Source: Turneriella sp.
Lineage (GTDB): Bacteria > Spirochaetota > Leptospiria > Turneriellales > Turneriellaceae
DNA: 64,000 nt
Assembly: GCA_965279515.1 (NCBI GenBank)
Contig: CBDIID010000003.1
Location: 1,600,001 to 1,664,000, forward strand
Direction of reading: 5' to 3'
Both the position numbers and the translations under genes were made by a program. The notes under the pieces were generated by a model that did not search any database, was not told the origin of the DNA, and saw nothing but the letters and a program-made list of their open reading frames with translations. Below are positions 40,399-62,049 of this stretch, one piece after another (the stretch's first letter is position 1; every line of letters begins with the position of its first letter).

Positions 40399-41697
40399 AT
40401 GGCCATAGAAAAAACCCTCGAATTGCCTTGCGGTGTGACGCTGAAGAACCGCCTCGCGAAATCAGCGATGAGTGAAAACATGGCTGTGAGAAATTTGCCC
40501 GACGAAAAGCTTACCCGCCTCTATGAAACCTGGGGTGAAGGAGAGCTCGGCCTCATCATCACCGGCAATATCATGGTCGACGGCGACGAATTGGGTGAAC
40601 CCAACAACGTGGTACTCGAAAACGATAAACACATCGATGCTTTTCGCCAATGGACAGCGGCCGCGAAAAAGCACGGCTCGCAGATCTGGGCACAGATCAA
40701 CCATCCCGGCCGGCAGGCGCCGTCAGCTATTTCGAAAGTCACTGTCGCGCCCTCGCCTGTAAAACTGAAACTGGGCAATCTCGGTTTTCGCATGCCGCAC
40801 GAGCTCACCGATGCTGAAGTCAAAGGTATTATTGCGCGTTTCGCGAACACTGCGCGCCTCTGTAAAGAAGCAGGTTTTGATGGCGTGCAGATCCACGGCG
40901 CGCACGGCTATCTTGTCAGCCAGTTTTTGTCGCCTCTCGCCAACCTAAGGAAAGATAGCTGGGGCGGTTCGATCGAAAACCGCATGCGCTTTGTCATCGA
41001 ACTCGTACGCGCGATGCGCGCCGCCGTCGGTAAAAAATTTCCGATCGGCATCAAGATCAACTCCGCCGATTTCCAGCGCGGCGGGTTCAGTGAAGAAGAT
41101 GCTGTCACCGTTGTAAAAGCCCTCGAAGCTGAGGGAATCGATCTGGTTGAAATTTCTGGTGGCACCTACGAGAGCGCTGCTATGACGGGCGCCAAAGGTG
41201 CGCTCGGCGAAACCGTCGCTGCTTCGACCGGAGCACAGGATGTGCCTGGGTCGACGCGCGACACGACGTCGCTCCGTGCGTCGACCGCCGCGCGCGAAGC
41301 CTATTTCCTCCCCTTTGCGGAAAAGATCAAAAAATCATTGAAGATCCCCCTCATGCTGACCGGCGGCTTTCGCTCTTCGGCCGCGATGAACCAGGCCATC
41401 GAATCGGGGGCCATCGACATCGCCGGTATCGCCCGCCCACTGGCGATGGAACCGCGCCTCGGCAAACGCCTCATCTCTGACGCCCATGCGCGCATTGAAC
41501 TCAAGCCCGTAAAAACCGGCATCGCCATGATTGACCGCATGGGCGTGCTCGAAATCGGTTATTATTCACTGCAGCTGAAACGTATCGGCGAAGGTAAAGA
41601 GCCGGATAAAAACCTCAGCGCCCTGGTCGCGCTGCCGCTTTTGGGACTCAACTATGGTTCGGGAATATTGCAGCGGTTTTTCAACCGCGACAAATAA
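40399..41697 (+). CDS. NADH:flavin oxidoreductase / old yellow enzyme family
   Basis: NRLAKSAMSE, QINHPGRQ, HGAHGYLVSQFLSP, REAYF. Carries an in-frame palindromic insertion near 41221-41286. Confidence 0.93.
   Translation: MAIEKTLELPCGVTLKNRLAKSAMSENMAVRNLPDEKLTRLYETWGEGELGLIITGNIMVDGDELGEPNNVVLENDKHIDAFRQWTAAAKKHGSQIWAQINHPGRQAPSAISKVTVAPSPVKLKLGNLGFRMPHELTDAEVKGIIARFANTARLCKEAGFDGVQIHGAHGYLVSQFLSPLANLRKDSWGGSIENRMRFVIELVRAMRAAVGKKFPIGIKINSADFQRGGFSEEDAVTVVKALEAEGIDLVEISGGTYESAAMTGAKGALGETVAASTGAQDVPGSTRDTTSLRASTAAREAYFLPFAEKIKKSLKIPLMLTGGFRSSAAMNQAIESGAIDIAGIARPLAMEPRLGKRLISDAHARIELKPVKTGIAMIDRMGVLEIGYYSLQLKRIGEGKEPDKNLSALVALPLLGLNYGSGILQRFFNRDK
41232..41286 (+). repeat. Palindromic element copy A (in frame within the NADH:flavin oxidoreductase gene)
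   Basis: AGCACAGGATGTGCCTG followed by hairpin GGTCGACGC...GCGTCGACC. Confidence 0.7.
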
Positions 41698-41698
41698 T

Positions 41699-42538
41699 CT
41701 ACAGATACGTCTTGACCATATCTTCTGAAAGGCGCCAAAGTTTTTCCTGTTTTGTTTTATCGTAAGACTCTTTCGAAGAAGGGATTGCTTTTTTGTTGTC
41801 GAAATATTTAGCCGTAACTCCCGCTACTTCCGGCGATGAAGCGAGATAGACGCTTGTCTCGGCGCCCTGCGCGGTGCTCTTCAGCACCAGCCCTGCGACA
41901 AAACGGATAAAGCCCGGCATCTCGCGCGTGATGTCGCTGGCAATGACACCGGGATGCAGGCAGTTGACGGTGATTTTGCGCGCAGCGAGCCGCTCGGCGA
42001 GAACATAGGTAAACATGACGTTTGCGAGTTTCGACTGGCTGTACGCGGTGATCGAACCCCAGTTTTTTTTGAGCTCCGGATCGTCTAAGTTGATGCTGCG
42101 CCACGAATGCATCTTCGACGCGACGTTGATAATCCTACCGCCATCGCTGATATTCTTTAAGAGTAAATTGGTCAGTAAAAAGGGCGCGAGGTGATTTACG
42201 GCAAAGACGGTTTCGAGGCCATCTTCGGTTTTAGAAGCCTTTGTGGCATTGAGGCCGGCATTATTCACCAGAATATCAACCTGGGAAGCTTTGGCTGAAA
42301 TCTCGCCGGCGAGCTTTTTCACCGACTTGAAGGATGCAAAATCCACCGGCAGAAATTCGATCGCGGCGCCGGGTATTTCGGCACGCACTTCGGCGATGAG
42401 CGAGCCCCCCGCATCGGCATTGCGCCCTGTGAAAAGCACGCGGGCACCTAAACGCACGAGGGCGCGTACCGTTTCACGGCCGATTCCCGCCGTACCGCCG
42501 GTCACCACTGCCACCTTACCGCCCAGATTTGCCTGCAT
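41699..42538 (-). CDS. Short-chain dehydrogenase/reductase (retinol dehydrogenase-like)
   Basis: TGGTAGIG, NNAG, VNHL, YSQSK, HPG. Start ATG 42538. Confidence 0.93.
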   Translation of the reverse strand: MQANLGGKVAVVTGGTAGIGRETVRALVRLGARVLFTGRNADAGGSLIAEVRAEIPGAAIEFLPVDFASFKSVKKLAGEISAKASQVDILVNNAGLNATKASKTEDGLETVFAVNHLAPFLLTNLLLKNISDGGRIINVASKMHSWRSINLDDPELKKNWGSITAYSQSKLANVMFTYVLAERLAARKITVNCLHPGVIASDITREMPGFIRFVAGLVLKSTAQGAETSVYLASSPEVAGVTAKYFDNKKAIPSSKESYDKTKQEKLWRLSEDMVKTYL

Positions 42539-42594
42539 AGTGCACCCACCCTGTAAATCGGTTGTCGGCGCAACGAAAAACCAAGGAATACGCA

Positions 42595-43380
42595 ATGCCG
42601 CGCGCCGCCGCGCCCACAAACATACTCGGAAAACCAGCCCCTGTCATCGCCGAAAATGCGCTGAAGCTTGAAACACGCAATCTCGTGAAGGTATACGGTA
42701 AGCGCACCGTGGTGCGCAATGTATCCTTCAATGTGCGGCAGGGCGAAGTCGTCGGTATTCTCGGCCCCAATGGCGCGGGAAAGACGACATCATTCTATAT
42801 GACCATTGGTCTTGTGCGTCAATCGGGCGGGCAGGTTTTTATGGGCGGTGAAGATCTCACCAAGATGCCGATGTACCTGCGCGCACGCCGCGGCATCGGT
42901 TACCTTGCACAAGAGGCCTCGATCTTCCGCACGCTTTCGGTGCGCAAAAACATCGAAGCGATCTTCGAGCTGCGTGACTTCGATAAAGACAGAATCAAAA
43001 CAGAAACCGACAAACTGCTGAAAGAGCTTGAAATCGAACATGTGCAGAACCAAAATGGGATTACCCTCTCAGGGGGCGAAAGGCGCCGCGCCGAAATCGC
43101 ACGCGCGCTGGCTTCGGACCCCAAATTTCTGCTGCTGGACGAGCCTTTCGCAGGTGTCGACCCGATCGCCGTCAAAGAGATCCAGCGCGTGGTCTGGCAA
43201 TTGCAGCAGCGCGGGCTGGGCATCCTAATCACTGACCACAATGTGCGTGAAACTTTAAAGCTGACCGACCGCGCTTATATTATATTCCAGGGGCAGGTAC
43301 TGATTGAAGGCACCGCCGACGTGCTGATTAAAGACAAAAAAGCAAGGGAGATCTATCTTGGCGAAGACTTCAAAATCTGA
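42595..43380 (+). CDS. lptB: LPS export ABC transporter ATP-binding protein
   Basis: GPNGAGKTTSFY, YLAQEASIFR, LSGGERRR, DEPFAGVDP, ITDHNVRETL. Lies upstream of rpoN. Confidence 0.95.
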   Translation: MPRAAAPTNILGKPAPVIAENALKLETRNLVKVYGKRTVVRNVSFNVRQGEVVGILGPNGAGKTTSFYMTIGLVRQSGGQVFMGGEDLTKMPMYLRARRGIGYLAQEASIFRTLSVRKNIEAIFELRDFDKDRIKTETDKLLKELEIEHVQNQNGITLSGGERRRAEIARALASDPKFLLLDEPFAGVDPIAVKEIQRVVWQLQQRGLGILITDHNVRETLKLTDRAYIIFQGQVLIEGTADVLIKDKKAREIYLGEDFKI

Positions 43381-43433
43381 TTTGAACTTGCGGGGTTTTT
43401 AAGGGGTGCGCATCGCGCAGCGATTTTCAGAAT

Positions 43434-44774
43434 ATGCCGAAGACGCAATTAAAGCAGAACGTCTCCCTTAAGACCGGTGTCCGGCAAAAACTGCATGGCA
43501 CCTTAACCCACGCGGTCCAGTTATTATCCTTACCGCAGCATGAACTGCGCGAAGAGGTACTGCGCGTCATCGCTGAGAATCCCTTCGTCGAAGAAATCTC
43601 TTCGGGCGAGACACCGCCGGTAGGCGTTGGCGAAAGCAAAGATTTTATCACGAAGGCCCACATCGGCCTCCAGGAAAATCTGCTGCTGCAGCTCGTCGAC
43701 ATGGGCCTGCCCGATAAAATCTATGACCTCGCACGCATCGTGGTCTCGACGATCGACAATGACGGCTTTACGGCTTTCCCCCACCGCACCATCATCGCCG
43801 ACTATAATTTCACGACGCGCGACCTGCGGGCCTGCATCGAATACCTCAAACAGCTCGAACCCTGCGGCGTCGCCGCGGAAAATCTCTGGCAGAGCCTCAG
43901 ATGGCAGGCCGAGGTGCGTTACGGCAAAGATGAATTACTCTTCGATCTCATCGACATGCTGCATGAAGCGCGCGAAGGTTTATCGCGTTTCTCGCAGGCT
44001 GAAAAAAATTCACTCTGCGAGATCCTTGAAGTCGACGCTGAAACCCTTGACGCTAAAATTAAGCTCTTAACCGCGCTCGATCCACACCCGGTTAACCGCA
44101 GCGACGGCACTGCCGCCGAATGGGCGCTGCCCGAGATTTTTTTTGAAGTTAAAGAGAAACAAATCTACGTCAAGGTTTCGGACCAATACCTGCCGCGCTT
44201 CCGCGTAAACCACAAGCTCTACCAGCAGATGATGGGTAAAAAGAGCGCCACAGCGCCGGGAGGAGCCGCACCTGCAATAAGGGACGCGGGGCAGCAGGCA
44301 GAGTGGCAATCGACATACCAAACGGCGAAATCCCTGATCGAAACACTGACATTCCGCGCCGATACGCTGACACAGGTGGCAAAAATCATAGCGGTCAAAC
44401 AGTACGATTTCTTCACCAAAGGCTCGGCGTACATACGCACGATGAGCCTCAAAGATCTGGCGCAGGAAACCAAACGCCACGTTTCGACAATCAGCCGCAT
44501 TCTTAACCGCAAATATTTTCATTGCTCGTGGGGCATCTTTCCGCTGCGCTTGTTTCTCATGCGTCGCATCAAATCTTCTGATGGCCAGGAACGCAGCGCC
44601 GAAGATCTCAAAACAGCAATTCTGACGCTGCTGGCACAAGATTCAGAGCGCAAAAAATCAGACCGCGTCATCGCGGAGATTCTGGCGGAACAAGGCTTCG
44701 AAGTCAAACGCCGGACCGTGAATAAATACCGGCGGCTGATCCACCAGGGTTCGTCGCGCAAAAGAACCAAATGA
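43434..44774 (+). CDS. rpoN: RNA polymerase sigma-54 factor (divergent)
   Basis: Gln/Leu-rich region I, ENPF, EPCGV, HVSTISR, RpoN-box variant KRRTVNKYR. lptB-rpoN synteny. Confidence 0.88.
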   Translation: MPKTQLKQNVSLKTGVRQKLHGTLTHAVQLLSLPQHELREEVLRVIAENPFVEEISSGETPPVGVGESKDFITKAHIGLQENLLLQLVDMGLPDKIYDLARIVVSTIDNDGFTAFPHRTIIADYNFTTRDLRACIEYLKQLEPCGVAAENLWQSLRWQAEVRYGKDELLFDLIDMLHEAREGLSRFSQAEKNSLCEILEVDAETLDAKIKLLTALDPHPVNRSDGTAAEWALPEIFFEVKEKQIYVKVSDQYLPRFRVNHKLYQQMMGKKSATAPGGAAPAIRDAGQQAEWQSTYQTAKSLIETLTFRADTLTQVAKIIAVKQYDFFTKGSAYIRTMSLKDLAQETKRHVSTISRILNRKYFHCSWGIFPLRLFLMRRIKSSDGQERSAEDLKTAILTLLAQDSERKKSDRVIAEILAEQGFEVKRRTVNKYRRLIHQGSSRKRTK

Positions 44775-45889
44775 CAGTCCCCTTCAATAAGACCTATCTG
44801 ACCGGTCTTGAAAAGAAATACCTCGACGAAGTCCTGGAGTCCGGAAAATTTTCAGGCAACGGTGATTTCACTAAACGTTGCCAGGCGCACCTCGAAAAGA
44901 CCTACGGCTTCAGAAAAACCCTGCTGACGACATCGTGCACCGACGCATTGGAGCTCGCCTCACTGCTTATCGATCTGAAGCCCGGTGACGAGGTCATATT
45001 GCCCTCTTACACATTTGTCTCAACCGCAAATGCATTCGCCCTGCGCGGTGCGAAACTTGTTTTCGCAGACAGCCGTGCTGATCACCCCAACCTCGATGCA
45101 GAAAAACTCGAGCCTCTCATGAACAAACGCACGCGGGCTATTGTGCCCGTGCATTACGGCGGGCAGGCCTGCGATATGGCGCGTATCATGGCATTGGCCG
45201 ATCAGCGCAAACTTTGGGTGATCGAAGACGCGGCGCAGGCCATCGACTCAGCTTACGGAGAGAAATACCTGGGCGGTGTCGGGCACTTGGGCGCCTTTTC
45301 TTTCCACGATACGAAAAACATTTCGGGCGGCGAAGGCGGCGCGCTTGCCATCAACCACGAGGCATTCGTCAAACGCGCCGAGATTCTCTGGGAAAAGGGC
45401 ACCAACCGCAGCGCCTTTTTCCGCGGTGAGGTCGATAAATACGGCTGGGTCGATGTCGGCTCATCATTTCTGCCTTCTGAACTTATTGCAGCTTTTCTGT
45501 TCGGGCAACTCGAAAAAACCGCTGAAATCCAGAAGATGCGCGTCGCGGCGTGGAATGAATACCGCCGCAACCTTGCAGTATTAGAACAGAAAGAAATCCT
45601 ACTGATGCCGGATGTATCTCATAACGCACATCTCTTTTATCTGGTTTGTCGCGGCTTAGACGAGCGCACAAAACTGATCGCTCACTTAAAAGCAAATGGG
45701 ATCGCCTCGGTGTTTCACTATCTCTCGCTGCATAAGAGTCCGTATTTTGCGGATAAGCATGATGGGCGAGAACTCGCGAACGCGGACCGTTTTACCGACT
45801 GCCTGCTGCGGTTACCGATGTATGCGGAGCTCGAAACCAGCACCGTAAATAAAATCTGCGACCTGATTCTTTCGTTCTACAAGGCGTGA
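44771..45889 (+). CDS. wecE: dTDP-4-amino-4,6-dideoxygalactose transaminase
   Basis: SCTDALE, EDAAQ, SFHDTKN, EKGTNR, DKYGWVDVGSS. Confidence 0.92.
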   Translation: MTVPFNKTYLTGLEKKYLDEVLESGKFSGNGDFTKRCQAHLEKTYGFRKTLLTTSCTDALELASLLIDLKPGDEVILPSYTFVSTANAFALRGAKLVFADSRADHPNLDAEKLEPLMNKRTRAIVPVHYGGQACDMARIMALADQRKLWVIEDAAQAIDSAYGEKYLGGVGHLGAFSFHDTKNISGGEGGALAINHEAFVKRAEILWEKGTNRSAFFRGEVDKYGWVDVGSSFLPSELIAAFLFGQLEKTAEIQKMRVAAWNEYRRNLAVLEQKEILLMPDVSHNAHLFYLVCRGLDERTKLIAHLKANGIASVFHYLSLHKSPYFADKHDGRELANADRFTDCLLRLPMYAELETSTVNKICDLILSFYKA

Positions 45890-45896
45890 TTTTTTA

Positions 45897-45932
45897 TTGA
45901 CCTCGTATATATTCGACTTTATATTCGTATAT
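45897..45932 (+). promoter_or_regulatory. Sigma70-type promoter/operator of the TA operon
   Basis: TTGACC-N17-TATATT ending 7 nt before ATG 45933. Direct repeat TCGTATATAT x2. Confidence 0.65.
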
Positions 45933-46166
45933 ATGAAAACCTTGGTAGATATCCCCGTCGGGGCATTACAAGAAGTGCAGAAAATCTATCACCTGAAGAC
46001 CAAAAAGGCCGCGATCGAGTTTGCTTTGAATGAAGTGATTCGTATGAAAAAACTTCGCGACCTCGCCGAATTATCAGGGACGTTCAAAGACAGCGAAATT
46101 ATGTCGCAGGCCGAACTAAAGAAGATGAGGCGCCTTGATACTTCTCGAATCTTCAGCATTCATTGA
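45933..46166 (+). CDS. vapB: Type II TA antitoxin, VapB family
   Basis: MKTLVDIP...KTKKAAIEFAL (RHH-like). Overlaps the PIN gene. Confidence 0.8.
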   Translation: MKTLVDIPVGALQEVQKIYHLKTKKAAIEFALNEVIRMKKLRDLAELSGTFKDSEIMSQAELKKMRRLDTSRIFSIH

Positions 46167-46524
46167 AAATCTGCGCGAAAACGGCCGCCGTGACATAAAA
46201 GCAAGGGTTAAGGCCGCGCTGCTCAACTCCAAGGCCGCTCTCTGCGAACCGGTGTTGCTTGAGCTCTGGGGAGGCTGCAAAGCAGGCAAAGAGGCAAAAG
46301 TCCTGAAAGCCTTTGAGTCCACTTTACCAATGCTCGAATGCGATGCGCTCGTGTGGCATCACGCCCGGAATAATGCGAGGCTTTTCCGGGCTAAAGGTTT
46401 CACCTTTTCGAATTTTGATATTTTGATTTTTTCGATCGCGCTGCGCCACAACGCCGGCATCATTGCCGTCGACAAAGCCTATGCGCAAATGCGCGATACG
46501 CTCCGAAAGGCTACCTTAGGTTGA
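46135..46524 (+). CDS. vapC: PIN-domain toxin, VapC family
   Basis: ILLESSAFI, VLLELWGG, FDILI, VDK. Confidence 0.82.
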   Translation: MILLESSAFIENLRENGRRDIKARVKAALLNSKAALCEPVLLELWGGCKAGKEAKVLKAFESTLPMLECDALVWHHARNNARLFRAKGFTFSNFDILIFSIALRHNAGIIAVDKAYAQMRDTLRKATLG

Positions 46525-48946
46525 AGCCGGCCTTTTGCATTTTGCCGATCAGGCCGTCCTGAAGCTTCTTGATCTCATCGCCGGCAAGCGTGCGCGTGGG
46601 GTTTCTCCACGTGGCGCGCACCGATACCGCTTTTTCGTCGGGCTTCAGATTGCCACCAGTAAAGGTGCTCAGGTGTTCGAAGGAAACCAGAACAGTTTTG
46701 TCGAGATCACGGCGCACCAGGGGGTCTGGAAAACCTGCTGCCTTTAAAAGCATGGCAAACTCAGCGCGCTGCGGCATGACAAGCGTCAGCTCAAACTCGA
46801 CGGCCGGGTATGTGAAAGGTGAACGGTATGCCGAAGATTTGCCTTTAAGCGCGAGTAAGTCTTTCAACAAGGCGTCGAAATAATAGACCCGCTCCTTAAT
46901 GCCATACGCCGCAAGAATACGCGGATGCACCTCGCCGAAACGGAAGATTTGTTTCTCTTTGTTTCCCGCGGCACCCGAGCGACCGGGGTGAAAAATAGCG
47001 TCCGGTGCGTTCCCGAATGTCTGCTCATGGCGCCCCAGTCCACAAAAGGCCAGTATCTCACCGACCATTGCCGAGACACCGGCAAGCGCGGCTTCTGCAT
47101 CTTCGGCAGAAGTAATAGCGCCGGCAAAGAAATACTCTTCGCCGCGCGCCAGCTTATCTTCGGCAGGTTTCAGGAAAATTTTTTCAATTTCGAAAAGCCG
47201 GGTATTTTTATCTTCGCGGTAGTTCCCTTGCACGGCGCGCAAAAGACCGGGCAGCGGTGAAATGCGCAGGTGGTCGAGGTCGCTGTTCAGTGCATTCTGC
47301 ATCTTCAGCACTTCACTGGCCTTAGCAAAGTGCTCGTCGCTCTGGATATCAGCGGCGCTGTGAAACGCGTAACTCAGGGATTCGTTGAGTTGCAAACGGC
47401 CGGCCGCCAGCGCCCTCAGGTTATGCTCGAGCGCGCGCAGATCGTTTTTCGCACGCGGGGTTTCACAAGCAACGAGCGCAGGTTCGATGTTGATTTCTTT
47501 ATACCCGATAAAGCGGCCGATCTCTTCGACCAAATCTTCGGCGCGCGTGATATCATACCACTTGCGGTAGTCGGGCGGAGTGACAACCAGGACATCACCC
47601 GACTCTTCTACCTTAAAATTCAGGCGGCGCAGAATATCGGCATTCGAGGCCGGGCGATGAGCGATCTTGCCCAATTTCTGATCGATGAAGGCATTTGTGG
47701 CGTGAATGGTTTCCGTCTTCGTAAAATCCTCGGTCGACACTTCATGGATTTCCGAGAGTTGGATGTCCCTCTGTTCTTCGGCCAGTAATTCCGCAAAGCG
47801 GTAGATCGCCGCCTTAGCCTTCGCGGGGTTCTGCGCCTTCTCAAAGCGCTGCGACGAATCGCTGCGGATGCCTGTCTTCGCCACTGTGCGCCGTATTTCA
47901 GAACGCGGGAACGTGGCCGACTCGAGAAAGAGTTTCGCCGTCGCCGTAGTCGTGGACGAACCCGCACCACCCATGACGCCAGCAAGCGCGACGGCCTTTT
48001 CACCGTCGCGTATCAGGATCAGGTTTTCAGGTAGCGTATGCTCAGTGCCGTCAAGGAGCGCAATCTTTTCATTGGCTTTGGAATAACTGACGCGCACAGG
48101 ACCTGAGATTTTGTCACGGTCGAAGGCATGGTTCGGTTGACCGATCTCGAAGAGCACATAGTTTGAAAGATCGACAATATTGCTGATCGGCTTTTGCCCG
48201 ATCGAAAGCAGGCGCATCTGCCGCGCAATTGGCGACGGCGCAACTTTGAAACCCAAAATTTCCGCACCGCAGTAAGTGATGGCGCTTTGTTTTTCAATTT
48301 CAATCTTGGGCAGGGAAGACGAAGCGACAGTTTTAAAAGTTGCTTCTTCGGGGTTTTTCTTCAGGGGTTTGCCCAAAAGCGCGGCAATCTCGCGCGCAAA
48401 ACCAAAATGACACCACAGGTCCGGGCGGTGTGTGATTGATTTATTATCGATATCGAATATGACATCCGCGGCGCCGAAATAATCCGAAAGCGGTGCACCC
48501 ACTTTCCAGTCATCGGGCAGCAGCATGAGGCCGTCGATCTTTGCGGGCGCATAATCGAGCTGTGTAATGCCCAGCTCATTGCCTGAACAGAGCATGCCGA
48601 AACTTTCCACGCCGCGCAGCTTCGCCTTTGTCATTTCGCGGCCGTCAGGCAATTTGACACCGACGAGCGCAACGGGGAATTTTTTTCCCTGTTCGACATT
48701 CGCTGCACCGGTGACGATCTGCACCACTTCTTTGCCGGTATTCACCTTGCAGATTTTGAGTTTATCGGCGTCGGGGTGCTTCGAGAGTTCATCGATGTGC
48801 GCCACGGGAATCTTTGCGAGGTGGCCCATAAAATCTTCGAAACCTTCGACCTCGCAGGTCTTCATCGTCAAGAGATCGGCCAAATCTTTCGGCGCGACGG
48901 TTGAGAGATCGACGAATTCGTTTAACCAATTGAATGAGAGCTTCAT
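46511..48946 (-). CDS. pheT: Phenylalanine--tRNA ligase beta subunit
   Basis: HPDADKL, LRGVESFGMLCS, THRPD, B3/B4, B5 and FDX-ACB regions. Confidence 0.96.
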   Translation of the reverse strand: MKLSFNWLNEFVDLSTVAPKDLADLLTMKTCEVEGFEDFMGHLAKIPVAHIDELSKHPDADKLKICKVNTGKEVVQIVTGAANVEQGKKFPVALVGVKLPDGREMTKAKLRGVESFGMLCSGNELGITQLDYAPAKIDGLMLLPDDWKVGAPLSDYFGAADVIFDIDNKSITHRPDLWCHFGFAREIAALLGKPLKKNPEEATFKTVASSSLPKIEIEKQSAITYCGAEILGFKVAPSPIARQMRLLSIGQKPISNIVDLSNYVLFEIGQPNHAFDRDKISGPVRVSYSKANEKIALLDGTEHTLPENLILIRDGEKAVALAGVMGGAGSSTTTATAKLFLESATFPRSEIRRTVAKTGIRSDSSQRFEKAQNPAKAKAAIYRFAELLAEEQRDIQLSEIHEVSTEDFTKTETIHATNAFIDQKLGKIAHRPASNADILRRLNFKVEESGDVLVVTPPDYRKWYDITRAEDLVEEIGRFIGYKEINIEPALVACETPRAKNDLRALEHNLRALAAGRLQLNESLSYAFHSAADIQSDEHFAKASEVLKMQNALNSDLDHLRISPLPGLLRAVQGNYREDKNTRLFEIEKIFLKPAEDKLARGEEYFFAGAITSAEDAEAALAGVSAMVGEILAFCGLGRHEQTFGNAPDAIFHPGRSGAAGNKEKQIFRFGEVHPRILAAYGIKERVYYFDALLKDLLALKGKSSAYRSPFTYPAVEFELTLVMPQRAEFAMLLKAAGFPDPLVRRDLDKTVLVSFEHLSTFTGGNLKPDEKAVSVRATWRNPTRTLAGDEIKKLQDGLIGKMQKAGFNLR

Positions 48947-49998: not shown

Positions 49999-50071
49999 GG
50001 GCCCCGATAGAACAGGGATTTAAGACACCGCGTCAAACTTCCTTAGTTATGCGGGGGTAACAAAAATTTGG

Positions 50072-50099
50072 CGTACGTTTTAAACTTTATTAACGTACG
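50072..50099 (+). promoter_or_regulatory. Inverted-repeat operator upstream of the TA pair
   Basis: CGTACGTT (50072-50079) ... AACGTACG (50092-50099), immediately before ATG 50103. Confidence 0.6.
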
Positions 50100-50102
50100 T
50101 AC

Positions 50103-50333
50103 ATGATTAATGTCACTGAGTTACGGCAAGACATCTACCACAAATTCGACGAAGTCATTGCCAAACAAGAGCCCCTGCTGATCGACCGAAAAGGGCATAT
50201 TCTGAAAATCGTTCCGCTCGGGCGCAATTCGCGTATTGCATCGCTCGAGCCACAAGAGCTGGTCGTGGGCGATATCGACGATCTGATTCACATGGATTGG
50301 TCTGAGACCTGGTCTGAAACCCAGAAACCCTAA
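50103..50333 (+). CDS. Type II TA antitoxin, Phd/YefM family
   Basis: MINVTELRQDIY...DEV...PLLIDRKG. Confidence 0.82.
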   Translation: MINVTELRQDIYHKFDEVIAKQEPLLIDRKGHILKIVPLGRNSRIASLEPQELVVGDIDDLIHMDWSETWSETQKP

Positions 50334-50710: not shown

Positions 50711-50921
50711 GCCAAGGCCTGATTTTATTGGGGGAAATCCTGGCGCTCATGCCAATGCGTCATAAATCTTGGTGCACCACACCATAAACTGATTGACGGC
50801 ATGTTGCGGTTATAGAAAATCCCGCTAATGGTGCGCCGCACTACTGACGACAAATCGAGTGTGAGCACAAGGTTTGCGCCATGATGCACTTTGTATGCAG
50901 CGCAGACCAGAGGAGGAAATT

Positions 50922-52104: not shown

Positions 52105-52146
52105 AGCGAAACGCGGGAGCGAACAGTTTTTGCCAAGCGCCAGGAC

Positions 52147-53148: not shown

Positions 53149-53255
53149 CGCGTGATAATAACTGACAAGAGAACATTCGACTTGTACAAACGTGCAAAAC
53201 GGCGGATTCCTGAATAAACGGTTTCAGGTATGTCAGACTTTCAGGCTGTTCTGTC

Positions 53256-54041
53256 ATGCGGCATCCCGAACTGCTCTGCCTCTGGGGCAATCGTGCTCTT
53301 TTTATGGGGTATTTGCCTGAATTCGGCATGCGCCGGCAGGGGGCTGCGGCGATCTGCGTGGGCCTTGAACGCGATCTTGAGATTTCCACAGACGAGCGCG
53401 AATGGATTACTTGCCGCACTGCGTTAACGCCTCCCCTGCTCAATCATGCGATCCGGTTTTCGGGCGGCTACTGTGCATTGCTGTTTATCGACACGCATGC
53501 GCAGGACCTGAAAACACTCGCAGCAGCGAATAAAGAACAACACCGTAATGGGCTATACGTCCCGCTGCTTGAAGAAGCGGCCTTGCTGGATATTCTGCAA
53601 CGGATATCCGGGACATCATCAGACGCCGGGCTTAGGGAACTCCTGAAAGAACTCAGCTTCGGCGAACAGCCAGTGCCAACGCCTATGCCAGACGGCGGCC
53701 TCGGGCGCGTCATGGCACACATGCTTGCCCGAATCTCTGAAAATACACCGGTGGAAGAACTGGCAGTCCTTGCCGGAATGTCGGTCTCGAATCTCGAACA
53801 TCAGTTCCGCGAACGGGTCGGCATTCCGCTCAGAATGTTCCGGAATTGGTTTCGCCTGAAGAGCGTTGTTTTATCGGTTTCTAAAGGGAAAAATTTAACG
53901 GATGCCGCGCTCGCCGCAGGCTTTTTTGATTCGGCACATTTTTCGCGTGCCTTCAAGGAAACCTTCGGCCTGCCACCCTCGGAGATTTTCAACCCCCGGC
54001 GGAATTTACGCTGGTTTATAGATACGACAGGCCCTGAATAA
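53256..54041 (+). CDS. AraC family transcriptional regulator
   Basis: LTDAALAAGFFDSAHFSRAFKETFG. Divergent from the oxidoreductase. Confidence 0.92.
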   Translation: MRHPELLCLWGNRALFMGYLPEFGMRRQGAAAICVGLERDLEISTDEREWITCRTALTPPLLNHAIRFSGGYCALLFIDTHAQDLKTLAAANKEQHRNGLYVPLLEEAALLDILQRISGTSSDAGLRELLKELSFGEQPVPTPMPDGGLGRVMAHMLARISENTPVEELAVLAGMSVSNLEHQFRERVGIPLRMFRNWFRLKSVVLSVSKGKNLTDAALAAGFFDSAHFSRAFKETFGLPPSEIFNPRRNLRWFIDTTGPE

Positions 54042-54048
54042 GCTGAAA

Positions 54049-54528
54049 CTAATTCGGCAGTTTACTCTGCTTCACTTTTTCAGCCAGTTGAGCCCGGTAT
54101 TTCTCAAGCGTATCTGCAAGTTTATCGTCAGCCAGCGCCAGAATCTGTGCGGCGAGAAGGCCCGCGTTCTTCGCATTGTCGAGCGCCACTGTGGCAACCG
54201 GAATTCCCGCGGGCATCTGCAGAATCGAAAGTATGCTGTCCCAGCCGTCGAGTGAGTTCGAAGACTTAACCGGAACGCCGATCACGGGCAAAGTCGTGAG
54301 CGAGGCCACCATGCCCGGCAAGTGCGCCGCGCCACCCGCGCCGGCGATGATCACCTGAAAGCCATTGTTTTTCGCCGCCTTCGCGAATTCAAACATCTTC
54401 TCTGGCGTGCGGTGAGCCGAAACAACTTCGGCATGCGCATCGACGCCGAGTTCCTTCAGTACTTCAGCGGCAGCCGACATGATCTTCCAGTCGGATTCAG
54501 AGCCCATAATAATTGCGATTTTTGCCAT
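54049..54528 (-). CDS. purE: N5-carboxyaminoimidazole ribonucleotide mutase
   Basis: [23 protein letters not shown]. Start ATG 54528. Confidence 0.97.
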
Positions 54529-55643
54529 CAGCTTTTTACCAGCGTTTCGTATTGCTTCAGGAGACCGCCGCGCTCTCCCGTCAGCGTTATGTGGCCGAGC
54601 TTGCGGAAGGGGCGTAAATCCTTTTTGCCATACCAATGCACGCGCGCGCCGGGCATGGCATGGGCACGCGCGATCAGCGTCTCAAACTCGGCTTCGCGGC
54701 CGGCCTCGGGCCCCAACAGGTTCATCATCAGCGATGGCACTGTCGTATCTGCGGCACCCAGGGGGAGCCCCAGAAGAATGCGCACGAGATTGTCGTACTG
54801 GCTGGTCGCCGCGGCTTCAATGGTGTGGTGACCGCTGTTATGCGGCCGCGGCGCCATTTCATTGACGAGCAGCTTGCCCTCTTTCGTAACGAACATTTCG
54901 ACGGCGAGAAGTCCCCTGACGCCCAGGTGGCGCGCCGCACTCGTGGCGATAAACTCCGCGCGGTTCGCGAGATGTTGATGCATGTCGGCCGGGCAAATCT
55001 GGTAACTCAGGATATTGTGCATGGGATCAAAAACCATTTCAACGGGCTCATATGCGACGAAGGCGCCATCTTCGGCCGTTGCGATGACGATCGAGATTTC
55101 CTGGGCGATATCGATTTTTTCCTCGACGAGCGATTCGCCCTCGAAGGCGGATTCGAGATCGTTTTCGCTCTTGAGTACTTTGACACCGTAACCGTCATAG
55201 CCCGCTGTTGCCATTTTCTGAACGCAGGGGAAATCCAAACCGGCGCTCTTGAGTTCTGCGCGCGAATGGAAAACCCTGAAAGGCGCGGTCGGTATATGGT
55301 GTTTCGCGAGAAACTCCTTTTGCCGGCATTTATTCTGGATCGTACTCAGCACCTCACCCGAAGGAAAAACTCTTTTTCCCGCACTGGCAAGCCCGGTAAG
55401 CGCAGCGGCATTGACGTGCTCTGAATCGATTGTCACCGCATCGCAGGGGGCGGCAAAACGCATGACGGTGTCGAAGTCCAGGGCATCGCCCTGGGTAAAA
55501 TAACGTGTGAAGGAGGCCGCCGGTGCTTCGGGATTTTTGTCGAGAATATGGCAGTGCACGCCCAGGCGCATTGCTGCCTCAAGCGTCATACGCGCCAGCT
55601 GGCCCCCGCCGAGAATGCCGATGGTCTTCTGTGGGTTCAGAAT
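54528..55643 (-). CDS. purK: N5-carboxyaminoimidazole ribonucleotide synthase
   Basis: [12 protein letters not shown] lies upstream of the tracked ATG 55589. [23 protein letters not shown]. Start codon unresolved (ATT 55643 or CTG 55640). Confidence 0.92.
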
Positions 55644-55704
55644 GTTAGTGCAAGGCTAGAACAGAATCACGGTGTATACGGAAAATAACAGCCGCGCTGG
55701 GCAT

Positions 55705-55744
55705 AAAAAAAGACGGCTACAGGCAGGAGAACCCGACAGCCGCC
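55705..55744 (-). terminator. Probable intrinsic terminator between the DUF1343-like gene and purK
   Basis: GGCGGCTGT-CGGG-TTCT-CCTG-CCT-GTAGCCGTC followed by T7. Confidence 0.65.
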
Positions 55745-55763
55745 AATGTTCGGAGTTAAATTC

Positions 55764-55803
55764 AGCACACGGATGTGCCTACTCCGCCGCCGCTGCGGCG
55801 GAG
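55764..55803 (+). repeat. Palindromic element copy B (intergenic)
   Basis: AGCACACGGATGTGCCTA plus hairpin CTCCGCCGC-CGCT-GCGGCGGAG. Confidence 0.7.
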
Positions 55804-55851
55804 ACATGCGCCCAATACAGAGCAGACCTCGCCCTGTTCAGCCCGGTTCCC

Positions 55852-57081
55852 TCATTTATATAATTTGTATTTTGCCATCGCGGTAACGAAGGCTGCCATA
55901 CGCTTCTTTTCTGCGCGGATAAATTCGTCGTAACTCAGTTCTTCGAGCAGGGCCTTGCGCATCGTGGTTGATCCGGTCTGCGCATCGAGCCCCTGCTTTT
56001 CGGTGAGATGATTTTTCAGCCATTCGTCTTTACCGTTCTTCACATGCCAGAGAAAGAACTCATAGGCGGCGCGCGGCGGATCGACCTTCGTCTCTGAGAA
56101 ATCGAGCTTATAGCCCGGCAGCAGTTTACCCTTGTGTTTGCCGCTATAGGCAAAAAACGGGTAGGGATAAAATTTCACGCCACCCATTTTGGGCAGCACA
56201 GCGTTAGCAAAATCAGGATGGCCGATCTGGCAGAACGGGTCTTTTGTGATACGGCCTTCTTCAATCGACGTCGCCTCAAAGAACACGGAAATCCAATAAC
56301 ACTGGTTCGCCCTGAGATGAGGCAGGTTCGGCGAAGGCGGATAAAAAACGAGGCCGCGGTGCGAATGCGCGGTTTTGGGTTTATACCCCGCCATTTTCTG
56401 GATATGGATTTTTATCTTCAGCTTATAATCGGCGATAAATTTGCGCGCGATTTCGGCATGCGTGAAACCCGGCATAAACGGAATCTCTTCTTCACCGACA
56501 TACGAAAAGTTCGTCTTCTGTGCCACCGGCCCCAACGGGCCCAGGTGCGACGCCGGGTTGGGTACGTCGATGAGGTAGAGCAGCTGGTCTTTGTCGGCTT
56601 TATCCATCGCGCGCATGATGCGGTTTAAGACCGTACGGTAGGTATAGGGCCTGACTCCGGAATCGGGCAAATCGAAGACAATCGCCTCGCAGCCGGCGAT
56701 TTTTTCCTGCAACTTCTCTACGGTCGTCAGATAGATCGTCTCTGGAGAACCCGCTTTGCTTTTGGTATTGCCATGATCATCTTCCTGTCCCGTCAGCCCG
56801 TGCTCGGGAGTAAAAAGATGCGCAAGTTTGATTTCATGTTTTGCCAGTTTTGCGCGGATGTATTTATCGGTCTGCTCCATGGCATCGTAGAGAAAGAAGC
56901 GTCCGAGCCCTGAGGCATTGGTGATAAAACAGACTTCCTTACCCTTGAGGCGTTTAAGGCCTTCTTTAAAGAAGATCTCCGCAGGCGTTCGCTGTGACTT
57001 CGTCTTCGCGGTACTTTTTTTTGCCGCGGCGGAAATCCCCCCTGAGGCCAGGGCCAGTATAACAATAAAAATGGTGCGCAT
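55852..57081 (-). CDS. DUF1343 / NamZ-like (exo-beta-N-acetylmuramidase family) exported protein
   Basis: Signal peptide, ITNASG, LFTPEHGL, FDLPDSGVRPYTY, PPSPNLP. Confidence 0.75.
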   Translation of the reverse strand: MRTIFIVILALASGGISAAAKKSTAKTKSQRTPAEIFFKEGLKRLKGKEVCFITNASGLGRFFLYDAMEQTDKYIRAKLAKHEIKLAHLFTPEHGLTGQEDDHGNTKSKAGSPETIYLTTVEKLQEKIAGCEAIVFDLPDSGVRPYTYRTVLNRIMRAMDKADKDQLLYLIDVPNPASHLGPLGPVAQKTNFSYVGEEEIPFMPGFTHAEIARKFIADYKLKIKIHIQKMAGYKPKTAHSHRGLVFYPPSPNLPHLRANQCYWISVFFEATSIEEGRITKDPFCQIGHPDFANAVLPKMGGVKFYPYPFFAYSGKHKGKLLPGYKLDFSETKVDPPRAAYEFFLWHVKNGKDEWLKNHLTEKQGLDAQTGSTTMRKALLEELSYDEFIRAEKKRMAAFVTAMAKYKLYK

Positions 57082-57162
57082 AGTATAGGGCTGCTAAAAG
57101 AGCGGAGGGCGATACGGCGACCATCAAGAACCTTGACGGTGTGTCTTAAGTGCGAAGATTAA

Positions 57163-58166
<1,004 letters not shown>

Positions 58167-58167
<1 letters not shown>

Positions 58168-58220
58168 GTCGGTCGCGAAGATGCCGTCCTAGCAGCGACC
58201 GACTAGGCGCATCCGTGCGC
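58167..58220 (-). repeat. Palindromic element copy C (directly after ilvC)
   Basis: Minus strand GCGCACGGATGCGCCTA plus hairpin GTCGGTCGC...GCGACCGAC. Confidence 0.7.
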
Positions 58221-58284
58221 ATAAGAGACTTTACGCCAACGGGGCTTCTCAATGGGGTGCTGAACGCCCCGGTGAGGGCCTCTT

Positions 58285-59721
58285 ATGGCTGAGGACGTCC
58301 TCAAACCCTTCAATTTTTCTCCTGAAATTATTGCGCGTATGCGTGATACGCAGGAGATCCCCGTTAACTTTTACAACGCCAACGGACAGGTGTTGATCCC
58401 CCGAAAAGAACAGGCTTCGGGTGATATGATCAATAAGCTGCTGCAGCATATTGGCACCGGCGTCTACTACCGCGAGGGCGACGAAGACAGGCTGGGGATT
58501 AAATCCAGCAAGAAAAACGAAGACGGCCTCAGCGACACCAACCTGATCTCTGAAAAACGTGTCGCCGAGATGACAGAGGCGACCGAGAGCCTTTTTAACG
58601 AACTTAAATTCGCTGCCTTCGGCGCGGTGCATTCGCAGAAGATGCACAGCCAGGTGAATTCCTTCATCACCGATTTTGAGCAACAACCCGATCTCATGAT
58701 AGGCGTAATTAACATTCTCGATTCAGTCAAAGGCGCCTCCACGTCCTCAGACATGTCGCAACAAGCGGTGAAGCGCGCCGTTGTGGCGATGGCACTGAAA
58801 TCACGTTCGATGAAGGCGATGATTAGTAAGGACCGGGGCCGCGGTTCAGAAGCGGTACAGCCGCTGATGATGAGCGGCATGCTGGCGCAGATCGGCAAGA
58901 CAAAGATGAATCTGCCCGAAGGTGGCACGCTCACCGCCGATCAGCGTGCCTATTTGAGAAAATATCCCCTGCTCTCATACCTGATGGTCGCGCATGAACC
59001 GAGTGTCGGGTTCGAGGTCAAGCGCCTGATCCTGAATCAGAAACGCACGCTGCCCGAAAATACCGTCACGAATAACTTTCCCGAATTCCGCTGGATGTCG
59101 ACGACGCTGCAGAACCTCGTCCAGGAGAATGATAAAAAAGGGAAAAAAGAAGTCGCCAGCGATATTCTGCGCCAGCTTGCCGCGTTCAAAGAATTCGTCG
59201 TCTATGAAGAAGATGTCAACATACTGAGCCTCGCGACAGATTTTGCCGAGCTGACCACCGATTCGAATCAGCGCGAGGCGAAAGATCCGATGACGGCCAT
59301 CAAACTCATTCTCAACACTTCGTATTTTCAATATGGTCCGAAGGTTATCCGCGATTTTCTCGACCACATCTCGATGTCGCTCAGCCACAATCAGAAAATT
59401 ATCAAAGACGGCGATCTGCTGATACTCTCGCTTGCCATGGCCAGCGGGCAGACCTATTTCGAAGTGGTGCGCGTTCTCGAAGTCGGCCGATACCAAAGCC
59501 GCGGTATGGTGCAGCGTCTCGGCGTCGTCCACATGACCGTGGTGCACGCCGATGGTCTGCACCACGGTGCCTTCCAGGTCGATTCGTTCCGTCCCGACCC
59601 GCGTAAAATCCGCATCAATCTCGGGCAGGATTTCCTGCGCCGGATCATCTATATTATCGATCCGGTTATCGATCCGCAGCTCTTCGAAAAAATGACGAAG
59701 CGCATTCAGCCCGCGCCCTGA
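58285..59721 (+). CDS. Hypothetical protein with degenerate HD-GYP-like region
   Basis: LAQIGK, KYPLLSY, ILNQKR and ILSLATDFAELTT align with HD-GYP motifs LHDIGK, HP..GY, QHHER and IAVADVYDALT, but the metal ligands are lost. Confidence 0.6.
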   Translation: MAEDVLKPFNFSPEIIARMRDTQEIPVNFYNANGQVLIPRKEQASGDMINKLLQHIGTGVYYREGDEDRLGIKSSKKNEDGLSDTNLISEKRVAEMTEATESLFNELKFAAFGAVHSQKMHSQVNSFITDFEQQPDLMIGVINILDSVKGASTSSDMSQQAVKRAVVAMALKSRSMKAMISKDRGRGSEAVQPLMMSGMLAQIGKTKMNLPEGGTLTADQRAYLRKYPLLSYLMVAHEPSVGFEVKRLILNQKRTLPENTVTNNFPEFRWMSTTLQNLVQENDKKGKKEVASDILRQLAAFKEFVVYEEDVNILSLATDFAELTTDSNQREAKDPMTAIKLILNTSYFQYGPKVIRDFLDHISMSLSHNQKIIKDGDLLILSLAMASGQTYFEVVRVLEVGRYQSRGMVQRLGVVHMTVVHADGLHHGAFQVDSFRPDPRKIRINLGQDFLRRIIYIIDPVIDPQLFEKMTKRIQPAP

Positions 59722-59723
59722 GA

Positions 59724-61700
59724 TTATCTTTTACGTTTGATTTCGCCGCGGATTTTACGGGCAATTTGTTCGCCCGTCAGGCCGCATTCTTTTTCGATAT
59801 CGGCAATGGAACCGTGGTGTACGACCGCATCGGGAAAGCCCAGCGCACGGTGTTTTACAGCAATGTCGTGTTCGGCGAGCAGCCGTGCTGTGAGGTCGCC
59901 GAGGCCGCCGATGAGTCCGTGGTTTTCGAGCGTAATCAGCAGCTTTTTTCCTTTCAGCGCTTTGAGTATTTGCGGCGCAGGCAAGGGTTTCAGCGAGCGC
60001 ACATCCATTACCGAGACGCCGATTTTCTCTTTGAGCAGAAGTTCGCGCGCCGCGAGGGCTTTTTCGGCAAATACACCTTCGCTGAGTATCAGCACATCCT
60101 TGCCCGGGGCTAAGACTTCTGCATGGAAGGGATTATAACGATTTTTTACCGAATTCCTGAGAATCGCTGCCGGTTCTGCGATCGCAAATTCTCTTTTCGG
60201 AAAGCGGATCGCGAGCGGCCCCTCATTATAACGCGCGGCGAACGCCAGCATACGTACAAGTTCATGCGCGTCGCGCGCCGAAAGGATTCTCATGTTGGGC
60301 AGCGCTGCCATGAAAGCGATATCGTAAAAACCCTGGTGTGTCTCACCGTCTTGCCCGACACAGCCTGCGCGGTCGATCACGAGGCGCACCGGCAGGTTCA
60401 TTAAGGCAATATCCTGCACGAGCTGATCGTAGCCGCGTTGCAAAAACGTCGAGTAGATGCAGAGAAAGGGTTTCAGGCCCGCATTGGCAAGCGCTCCGGC
60501 AAAAGTTGTCGCATGCTGCTCGGCGATGCCGGCGTCGAAAAAGCGCGACGGATATTTCGCCGCAAAGGGCTGCAGGCCTGAGCCTTCTTTCATCGCAGGT
60601 GTAATGACCGTGATCTTTTCGTCGTTCGTGCCGAGGTAGGTCAGCGTCTCGCCGACGAATTTACTCATACCCCACTGCGTCGCGGTTTTTGGCTGAATGC
60701 CATATGTCGGGTCGAAGATACCGACGCCGTGGTACTGTATCGGGTCCTTTTCGGCGAGCGGGTAGCCATAACCTTTTTTTGTAACGACGTGCAAAAGAAT
60801 CGGCTCTTCAATCGGCGGCAGGTGCCCAAGCACATTGACGATGCGGACAACGTCATGGCCGTCGATGGGGCCCAGGTAACGAAAGCCGAGCTCACCGAAA
60901 AACTGGTGATCGATCGCCAGCGATTTCATCGACATGCGAAAACGTTTCGCGAGGCGGTTAATAACCTTGCCGATCAGGGGAATTTTTGAAACAAGCGAAA
61001 TAAAGCCGCGCTTGCTGCTCTTGTAGAAACTGGTGTTGATGAGTTGCGTGAGATGGTAACTGATCGCCCCGACATTCTTCGAGATACTCATCTCGTTGTC
61101 GTTGAGGATAGCCAGCATCGGCGTACGCGCAAAGCCCGCATGGTTCATGGCTTCGAACGCCATACCCGTTACAATAGAAGCGTCGCCGACAATTGCAACG
61201 GCCGTGCGCGTTGCGGCGCCGGGTTGTACCTGGCCGCGAGCAGCCACGGAAGGCTTCTGTGCGAGCGGCGCCAGTTGAAATCCTACCGATTCGCCCATCG
61301 CCTGCGAGATCGCGGTACCCGCATGCCCGGTGTTATAGAGATCGTGCGGCGACTCAGAGCGCTTGGGGAATCCCGAAAGCCCGCCGGTTTTGCGGATGGT
61401 ATGCAGTTCGGCCTTGCGGCCCGTCAGAATTTTATGCGCATAACACTGGTGGCCGACATCCCAGCAAAAGCGGTCTGAAGGCGAGTTAAAGACGTAGTGC
61501 AACGCGACGGTGAGTTCGACCGACCCCAGGTTCGATGACAGGTGCCCGCCGCTCGCCGCGACACTCTCGAGAATAAAGCCGCGCAGGTAGTCGCAGAACG
61601 CAGGCAGATCGGTAATTTTCAGTTTCTTCAGCGCCGCAGGCGAATCGATGCGGGAAAAATCGGGTGTGTCAGCGGAACCGGGCATCGCCTTGAGCAGCAA
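59724..61700 (-). CDS. dxs: 1-deoxy-D-xylulose-5-phosphate synthase
   Basis: GGHLSSNLG, WDVGHQ, GDAS...NDN, GIAEQH, DRAG, DGETHQG. Start TTG 61700 or ATG 61685. Confidence 0.97.
   Translation of the reverse strand: MLLKAMPGSADTPDFSRIDSPAALKKLKITDLPAFCDYLRGFILESVAASGGHLSSNLGSVELTVALHYVFNSPSDRFCWDVGHQCYAHKILTGRKAELHTIRKTGGLSGFPKRSESPHDLYNTGHAGTAISQAMGESVGFQLAPLAQKPSVAARGQVQPGAATRTAVAIVGDASIVTGMAFEAMNHAGFARTPMLAILNDNEMSISKNVGAISYHLTQLINTSFYKSSKRGFISLVSKIPLIGKVINRLAKRFRMSMKSLAIDHQFFGELGFRYLGPIDGHDVVRIVNVLGHLPPIEEPILLHVVTKKGYGYPLAEKDPIQYHGVGIFDPTYGIQPKTATQWGMSKFVGETLTYLGTNDEKITVITPAMKEGSGLQPFAAKYPSRFFDAGIAEQHATTFAGALANAGLKPFLCIYSTFLQRGYDQLVQDIALMNLPVRLVIDRAGCVGQDGETHQGFYDIAFMAALPNMRILSARDAHELVRMLAFAARYNEGPLAIRFPKREFAIAEPAAILRNSVKNRYNPFHAEVLAPGKDVLILSEGVFAEKALAARELLLKEKIGVSVMDVRSLKPLPAPQILKALKGKKLLITLENHGLIGGLGDLTARLLAEHDIAVKHRALGFPDAVVHHGSIADIEKECGLTGEQIARKIRGEIKRKR
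61215..61272 (+). repeat. Palindromic element copy D (in frame within dxs)
   Basis: GGCGCC...GCGAGC-AGCCACGGAAGGCT-TCTGT-GCGAGC-GGCGCC. Confidence 0.65.
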
Positions 61701-61703
61701 AGG

Positions 61704-61949
61704 TTACTTCAGCTCCACGGCGTTTTCGTAGATCAGAACAGGAATGCCTTCGCGGATAAAATAGAAAACACCGGTCTCTTTTTGCAAAAGACCCTCGGTC
61801 GCCGGCTGGGTAACTTCGGCGCCCGAAATCTCGCGGCATTTACCGGCCTTGACGAGCCCATTGACGCGCTCAAGCACCGCGGTGTCGGCCAGCGCGAGTT
61901 TTTTCTTAGAGCGGGGGCAGACCAGAATTTCGAGGAGCTCGGGACTCAT
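61704..61949 (-). CDS. Trm112 family protein
   Basis: LLEILVCP...IREGIPVL. GGAGG RBS before ATG 61949. Confidence 0.88.
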   Translation of the reverse strand: MSPELLEILVCPRSKKKLALADTAVLERVNGLVKAGKCREISGAEVTQPATEGLLQKETGVFYFIREGIPVLIYENAVELK

Positions 61950-61983
61950 GACCTCCAGAACAGGCGGCCGAAACACGTCGTCA

Positions 61984-62049
61984 ACCGAGGGCAGGATGCC
62001 TCGGGTGCGAGCTCGCATGGAGGCGATCTTTGCGAGCACCGAGGGCAGG
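61984..62049 (+). repeat. Palindromic element copy E (intergenic) with 12-bp terminal direct repeats
   Basis: ACCGAGGGCAGG-ATGCC...GCGAGC-TCGCATGGAGGCGA-TCTTT-GCGAGC-ACCGAGGGCAGG. Confidence 0.7.

Follow-up and report, generated by a model that had tools for sequence, protein, structure and literature searches.

A gene-less twin-hairpin repeat of about 57 nucleotides in Turneriella that likely inserts by pairing with its host site

The 64,000-nucleotide (nt) stretch of a Turneriella sp. genome analyzed here (contig CBDIID010000003.1, positions 1,600,001 to 1,664,000; hereafter the window) carries copies of a gene-less twin-hairpin repeat of about 57 nt, of the same type as the orphan motifs Bacillaceae-1 and TwoAYGGAY. 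The repeat units are a real, strongly covarying family that has been gained and lost in Turneriella, and their stems partly mirror the host site, also where the site is an empty allele. We propose that the unit inserts by pairing with its host site with the help of an enzyme supplied in trans, a reading to which we give a probability of roughly 0.55. Throughout the text, G000 is the studied genome (4.9 Mb), other G-numbers denote further genomes, and L-numbers denote loci.

The unit is composed, in order, of a first hairpin (H1, a 4-bp stem plus a C-G pair), a spacer of 2-4 nt, the first arm of a 9-bp outer stem (S), a second hairpin (H2, 3 bp plus C-G), a 5-nt bulge beginning with TC and the second arm of S. 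The loops of H1 and H2 follow the same consensus, CA(N)[G/C]GANG. A first-pass annotation of the window had described five small palindromic elements, which are all present within 1-2 nt of the positions it gave, and had sorted them into two architectures, a short hairpin followed by an unrelated 9-bp hairpin (type 1) and a short hairpin between two GCGAGC motifs (type 2). Both are halves of one ~57-nt unit: the supposedly unrelated hairpin holds a degenerate H2 in the copies at 41232 and 58220 (minus strand), the type 2 copy at 62007 has H1 directly upstream (61988-62002), the copy at 55764 has lost H2 and that at 61236 has a decayed H1. The literal sequence patterns proposed for the two types occur genome-wide only at the five known places (3 + 2) and were therefore overfitted, and a repeat search of the window missed the family because the stems differ. 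Between 55000 and 63000, the part compared, the window shows zero differences from the short-read contigs of runs X1 and X2, which may themselves be the source of the assembly. A covariance model, R1, trained without the window copies at 61983, 55759 and 61210, was used to scan the genome and its relatives and scores all five copies. The features in the window are:

41231..41287, plus strand: complete 57-nt unit with H1 loop CAGGATG and H2 loop CACGACG (R1 47.2 bits), inserted in frame and sense in an NADH:flavin oxidoreductase gene (40399-41697; PF00724), with a 7-nt direct repeat at 41224-41230 and 41281-41287
41189..41230, plus strand: probable earlier, decayed copy directly upstream, in the same protein loop
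55765..55803, plus strand: H2-deleted unit, H1 and outer stem only (R1 31.2 bits), between purK and a NamZ-like gene
58164..58220, minus strand: complete 57-nt unit at the ilvC stop codon, antisense to ilvC (R1 58.0 bits), with a 5-nt direct repeat at 58164-58168 and 58221-58225
61213..61272, plus strand: decayed unit with H1 partly deleted (R1 21.0 bits), in frame and antisense in dxs (59724-61700, minus strand), with an 8-nt direct repeat, 52 nt apart
61984..62049, plus strand: complete 54-nt unit (R1 38.7 bits) upstream of a Trm112-like gene (PF03966), with a 12-nt direct repeat at 61984-61995 and 62038-62049, 54 nt apart

The last of these had been taken to lie inside a gene and is intergenic, the Trm112-like open reading frame (ORF) on the minus strand starting near 61949, at MSPELL or its equivalent in 12 relatives.

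The family stands out clearly from the composition of the genome. Hairpins with a CA(N)GGANG loop and a stem of at least 3 bp number 315, compared with 62-72 in three order-5 Markov genomes, and with a stem of at least 6 bp they number 75, compared with 0-2 in the Markov controls. Pairs of such hairpins no more than 70 nt apart occur 56 times in the genome and 0 times in the controls, and none of nine control loop patterns produced more than one close pair. A descriptor search for two CA(N1-2)GANG loops on short stems returned 84 matches, 73 of them with a loop-to-loop gap of 18-19 nt; five were discarded by eye as false, leaving 79 clean units. A strong outer stem, which this descriptor did not demand, is present in 59 of the 72 first-in-array units, and 58 of the 59 S arms differ in sequence (these 59 units, used in several tests below, leave aside 13 in which the outer stem is weak and 7 that come later in an array). 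In an alignment of 46 units (A1, which took in 46 of 48), pairing amounts to 92.5% in S and 95.1% in H2, two-sided changes occur at 17 of 18 pairs, none of 500 shuffles reached the pairing or the score, and pairing falls to 30-50% when the partners are slid. H1 is partly misaligned in A1 (62.6% paired), a second alignment (A2) was fitted to the model, and the pairing rates of H1 and H2 are partly ascertained because the descriptors require these hairpins to pair.

R1 finds 98 matches in the studied genome and 35-101 in each of the 13 congeners, compared with 0-5 in 17 genomes of other genera. These counts are lower bounds, since 150 candidates were scored per genome (34 in a wider spirochaete survey, in which 10 of 150 other genomes gave weak matches). 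In other families of the order the matches share this layout and differ in the bulge, and 16 genomes of family f8 gave no R1 match. Hairpin enrichment, fixed loop-to-loop geometry, covariation and the counts in congeners bear out the earlier view that structure is conserved while stem sequence varies, and the copies found genome-wide above background likewise uphold a dispersed, non-autonomous family. By our own gene calling, ORFs contain 35 of the 79 units, 26 of them in sense and 9 in antisense orientation; among the 44 intergenic units many touch a stop codon and 14 are antisense, so that both orientations occur. The units inside ORFs are often in-frame insertions (e.g., 19 codons for a 57-nt unit), read in several frames and on both strands, and the resulting peptides are varied. 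Units also form head-to-tail arrays with a period of 55-60 nt. In a genome of another genus (G016:C132; L099, L104 and L107) three near-identical units lie, in both orientations, inside a larger repeated segment that carries a methyltransferase-like fragment and is possibly a recent carrier element.

The first-pass annotation had asked for empty sites at orthologous loci, and these were found at four of the window loci. At the oxidoreductase position 8 of 14 Turneriella genomes carry units, the stems of which are all different, and 6 of 14 are empty; on the tree two sister pairs (G008/G003 and G011/G009) combine a filled with an empty allele. The protein loop measures 40 aa in the studied genome and 15-16 aa in seven empty orthologs, and since this excess of 24-25 aa is larger than one unit, a decayed earlier copy probably lies at 41189..41230, the position at which the unit begins in seven relatives. 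In dxs the long segment is present only in the studied genome among 14, where it has 32 aa; 11 of 13 relatives have 19 aa at this place and the remaining two 18 and 23 aa. At the ilvC stop codon G012 has an empty site with a single copy of the repeat and G001 has an interrupted copy (L029), in which another short repeat has replaced H2 of the orthologous unit, so that the hairpins of the unit may themselves serve as landing sites. In 12 relatives the Trm112-like gene has no unit upstream, and G001 keeps the flank up to the repeat without it. The 55765 copy has an ortholog in G001 with a longer, decayed middle and a compensatory outer stem, and the whole spacer that holds it is missing in G002, G011 and G012. 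A unit of G011 lies in frame inside the neighboring NamZ-like gene (L133), the matching site of the window, at ~56749, being empty.

Turnover of this kind extends beyond the window. Of 51 units of relatives that could be placed on the studied genome by both flanks, 45 are absent there by script, and at least 42 after removal of three shared loci; clean 57-nt indels are seen at L146, L153, L155 and L170. The genome thus holds further copies and the orthologous loci hold empty alleles, the two findings on which the claim of a mobile family had been staked. Some positions are filled repeatedly: at an adenylate cyclase-like codon (L127, L149, L173 and L174; G000:C3:4332750) four genomes carry units with different stems and the studied genome is empty, and the start of flgN (L113, L165 and L180) is filled in the studied genome and three relatives. 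At six shared loci 21 pairs have changed compensatorily and 7 are broken, a count that leans high because the register of the studied genome was optimized. No excision joint was found at any unit in four contig sets, data that are unable to show rare events.

The boundaries of the units and the resemblance between unit and site provide the evidence for insertion by pairing. In 59 units the direct repeats match in register at 3.31 of 6 positions, compared with 2.65 +/- 0.11 by chance; they range from 2 to 17 nt in length and extend through the CA of loop 1 in 5 of 59 units in the studied genome and 11 of 69 in relatives. A YYRN motif marks the left boundary, with CC at -8/-7 in most cases (79 and 71 of 128 units). 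Complementarity between the seven bases that follow H1 and the host sequence upstream amounts to 3.71 of 7 positions, compared with 3.11 +/- 0.07 (128 units), and 32 of the 128 units reach at least 5 of 7 where 8.9 are expected. In our strongest test of target matching, which compares the 5' arm of H1 with the empty allele of the studied genome in 21 rows (two of them one site), the two agree at 40 of 84 positions, compared with 22.6 +/- 3.7 after shuffling (p ~0.0002). Individual loci give the same picture: the 3' end of a tRNA shares 11 nt with the unit (L139), the empty sister allele of a purT-like site matches the left end of the unit, and at L128 the unit matches conserved codons of a gene that, from its motif, we take to be MsrB-like.

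In the mechanism we propose, the unit would be guided to its site by the strand that follows loop 1, through base pairing with host DNA similar to the left end of the unit itself. The intermediate would be a folded single strand, more likely of DNA than of RNA, and recognition by a protein would depend on the two CA(N)[G/C]GANG loops and their fixed spacing, whatever the sequence of the stems; because the stems would be ignored, they could drift freely and in doing so re-program the choice of target. Strand exchange would take place in the YYRN motif at the foot of H1 and leave a direct repeat, and arrays, half copies and precise losses would later arise when the two copies of the repeat slip against each other. 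Our working analogy is IS608 of the IS200/IS605 group, where DNA at the foot of a hairpin selects the target by base pairing and a change in the element re-programs the choice (PMC5934647). The unit differs from IS200/IS605 ends and from REP (repetitive extragenic palindromic)/TnpA-REP systems in having no linked Y1 transposase, no GTAG-type tag, no replichore bias, repeats of up to 17 nt and a guide that differs from copy to copy.

Several observations weigh against insertion by pairing. The target match is partial, many units sharing only 2-4 nt with the site and several carrying an H1 arm of their own that shares just 3-5 bases with it, and the CA of the loop lines up with no more than 4 of the 21 empty alleles. 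The shared hot spots may date from old insertions that were precisely lost several times, which the tree cannot separate from repeated gain. The compensatory changes at the shared loci (21 vs 7) and a sense bias among in-gene units (26 vs 9, p 0.006), unexplained by stop codons, suggest that forces act after insertion. There are no identical copies at distant loci of the studied genome (nearest neighbor 14.8/21, best 18), and hence no recent burst is seen, nor is there a lagging-strand bias of the IS200/IS605 type (31 vs 40, p 0.34). A mobilizing enzyme, too, was sought in vain. The expected HUH or REP-associated tyrosine transposase (RAYT) gene flanked by the motif is not among the 23 Y1 loci of 14 genomes, none of which adjoins a unit apart from one weak match inside a neighboring UDG gene. 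The IS110 recombinase of bridge-RNA systems (PF02371) was found in 0 of 14 genomes, several of them incomplete, and reverse transcriptases are present in only 6 of 14, the single one of the studied genome having no unit nearby. A GIY-YIG/Ssn system was also considered as a candidate (PMC11893778), and none of 29 GIY-YIG loci is linked to a unit. The 98 neighboring ORFs scanned, out of 233, are mostly housekeeping genes, with no transposase or recombinase among them. A presumably IS110-like ORF lies near a weak match in another family (L109). The single Y1 transposase-like gene of the studied genome (L001; G000:C3:2616152) has on its flanks palindromes of its own with a GGGAATTAATTCCC core, which form a separate REP-like family.

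The failure to find a mobilizer is what would be expected if there were no dedicated enzyme at all, and if fragments of arrays or small circles integrated at microhomologies while hairpin arms were repaired by template switching, which would produce covariation without selection. The variable length of the direct repeats (2-17 nt), the many arrays and half copies and one chimeric copy within the 814-kb array all suit such illegitimate recombination. It does not, however, predict a fixed left boundary (the CC at -8/-7), a fixed length and constant loops, and the 3-bp stem of H2, which is 95% paired, is judged too short for plain template switching; we consider this explanation improbable. A somewhat better, though still unlikely, alternative is that the units are CsrA-binding RNA modules under host selection, in which two GGA hairpins, set at a distance suited to a CsrA dimer, tune mRNAs or titrate CsrA, and that their mobility is secondary. 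In the studied genome 133 of 158 loops are of the GGA type (ANGGA or AGGA), and both loops read CA(N)GGANG in 56 of 79 units, which fits the consensus RUACARGGAUGU. Binding of Leptospira CsrA to a GGA loop is seen in electrophoretic mobility shift assays, and the protein requires the GGA (PMC8668096). The csrA gene is present in 31 of 31 genomes (at C3:3198123-3198278 in the studied genome), and the in-gene sense bias, the compensatory changes at shared loci and three sense-oriented units lying 1-3 nt behind tRNA genes also speak for selection on RNA. Yet csrA is found in unit-free genomes as well, 25 of 158 loops in the studied genome and 30 of 138 in relatives lack GGA, mostly through a recurring ACGA variant, there is no strand bias between co-directional genes (16 vs 14), most loci occur in a single lineage only, many copies are antisense, and selection leaves the direct repeats and the match to empty sites unexplained. 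Because most loops match the CsrA site, transcribed sense copies would probably bind CsrA, whether this is a side effect or an additional force that maintains the fold, and we regard such binding as secondary. A presumably GxxExxY-type ORF lies in the csrA-fliW-flagellar operon (L012; G000:C3 ~3197-3198 kb).

A third possibility involves cassette arrays. The studied genome has two large arrays with long attC-like sites (G000:C3 ~90-172 kb and 3.73-3.81 Mb; L007, L008 and L009), for which no integron integrase (IntI) was found above cut-off; the idea that they represent Flavo-1 was dropped, as 40 kb of the arrays gave no Rfam match. Single hairpins with the loops of the unit, ACGA variants included, stand at the cassette ends with a marked orientation (83 plus vs 3 minus), ~30 nt after the GTT and 32-37 nt before the AAC of the attC-like sites, and the tip of the attC-like hairpin shares with the unit the geometry of a stem, a 3-bp hairpin and a 5-nt bulge. 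The unit could be a by-product or parasite of this integron-like cassette system, the machinery of which would recognize the same hairpin. Against this, an R1 scan of 88 kb, ~43 kb of it arrays, gave no two-hairpin unit, and the logos of the unit ends show no GTT/AAC crossover motif, and we rate this origin as the least probable of the alternatives. The hairpin shared with the cassette ends may reflect a common factor. In a broader version of insertion by pairing, which we put forward only tentatively and as rather less than probable, the unit would be a self-programming mini-transposon in which a loop-reading enzyme uses the drifting stems as its guide, the same factor would act at the cassette ends, and TwoAYGGAY and Bacillaceae-1 would belong to the same class of guide-carrying, CsrA-mimicking elements.

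Comparison with known systems places the unit close to these two motifs, which have been orphans since 2010 (Weinberg 2010, PMC2864571). At gathering level an Rfam scan of the window returned only a tRNA. Bacillaceae-1 (RF01690) is a multi-copy motif of ~65 nt, the reverse strand of which reads as a short hairpin, a spacer and a bulged long stem capped by a second hairpin (PMC2864571). This is the layout of the unit, likewise in many copies, when rows of the published supplement are compared by eye with A1, and the two also share CAGGANG loops and the lack of a basal stem. The best match of RF01690 in the genome, among 150 of 663 candidates scored, is window 41232-41286 on the minus strand (model positions 11-67), at 22.5 bits compared with a gathering threshold of 35. 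The unit differs in its spirochaete host, its far more variable stems and its ACGA loop variants, and the literature searched gives no empty sites, direct repeats or in-frame copies for Bacillaceae-1. TwoAYGGAY (RF01731) resembles the unit in its two sequential GGA-loop hairpins, its dispersal, its variable copy number and the presence of some copies in coding sequence (PMC2864571; 10.64898/2026.09.22.753630). Its best match reaches 24.4 bits compared with 43 and covers only positions 45-113 of 168, with none in the window, and strict AYGGAY occurs in both loops of 4 of 79 units. The basal stem of TwoAYGGAY was not found in the unit, where flank-to-flank helices score 5.32 compared with 5.14 +/- 0.14 after shuffling (p 0.11) and indels are clean at 57 nt; moreover, units form head-to-tail arrays rather than divergent doublets, and no 5' pentamer arrays were noticed. 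CsrA binding has been proposed for TwoAYGGAY and for the reverse complement of Bacillaceae-1 (PMC4333381), and a 2026 preprint treats TwoAYGGAY copies as proposed Csr/Rsm sites, with mobility suspected but no mechanism given (10.64898/2026.09.22.753630). The unit thus works like the orphan CsrA-type motifs and is not a member of either by score, both matches being below threshold.

Other mobile palindromes are more distant. Rickettsia palindromic elements are likewise inserted in frame within unrelated housekeeping genes (PMC10969869), and the unit behaves in the same way in that 35 of 79 units lie in ORFs with empty orthologs. Those elements are ~150 bp long and encode one conserved peptide (PMC10969869), whereas the unit has 57 nt, several frames on both strands and varied peptides. 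The earlier suggestion of a REP-like, MITE-like or RNA-structured mobile family holds in so far as the units are dispersed, gained and lost. Its more specific forms find no support: against a miniature inverted-repeat transposable element (MITE) stand the lack of terminal inverted repeats (2.0/8 matches) and direct repeats of 2-17 nt rather than of fixed length, and against a classical REP/RAYT pair a GTAG-type tag in 0 of 59 units and the lack of flanking units at the 23 Y1 loci beyond the one weak match. The first-pass annotation had mentioned neither the resemblance of the loops to CsrA sites and of the unit to Bacillaceae-1 and TwoAYGGAY, nor the direct repeats at the flanks, nor the agreement of stem and target.

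We found no paper on this family in the literature searched, although the supplements of Weinberg 2010 and of the preprint may hold related remarks. What is new here are the empty sites, the target matching, the insertions of 19 codons and the occurrence of the hairpin at the ends of cassettes; the term 'target site' does not occur in the main text of the TwoAYGGAY preprint, which calls the link of mobility to regulation unresolved (10.64898/2026.09.22.753630). The family supplies what the literature searched does not offer for the orphan motifs, namely filled and empty alleles, a defined unit, its boundaries and a target rule, and these make the question of mobility and regulation testable. 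The units add 19-residue loops to core enzymes and up to ~160 CsrA-type sites to a genome, and if their stems do guide insertion, a programmable insertion enzyme awaits discovery. A minor observation concerns the 19.8-kb contig G000:C2, which has one CAAGGAGG hairpin, the same sequence recurring at 3291, 9917 and 16543; because of this recurrence the contig is probably a 6.6-kb circle assembled three times.

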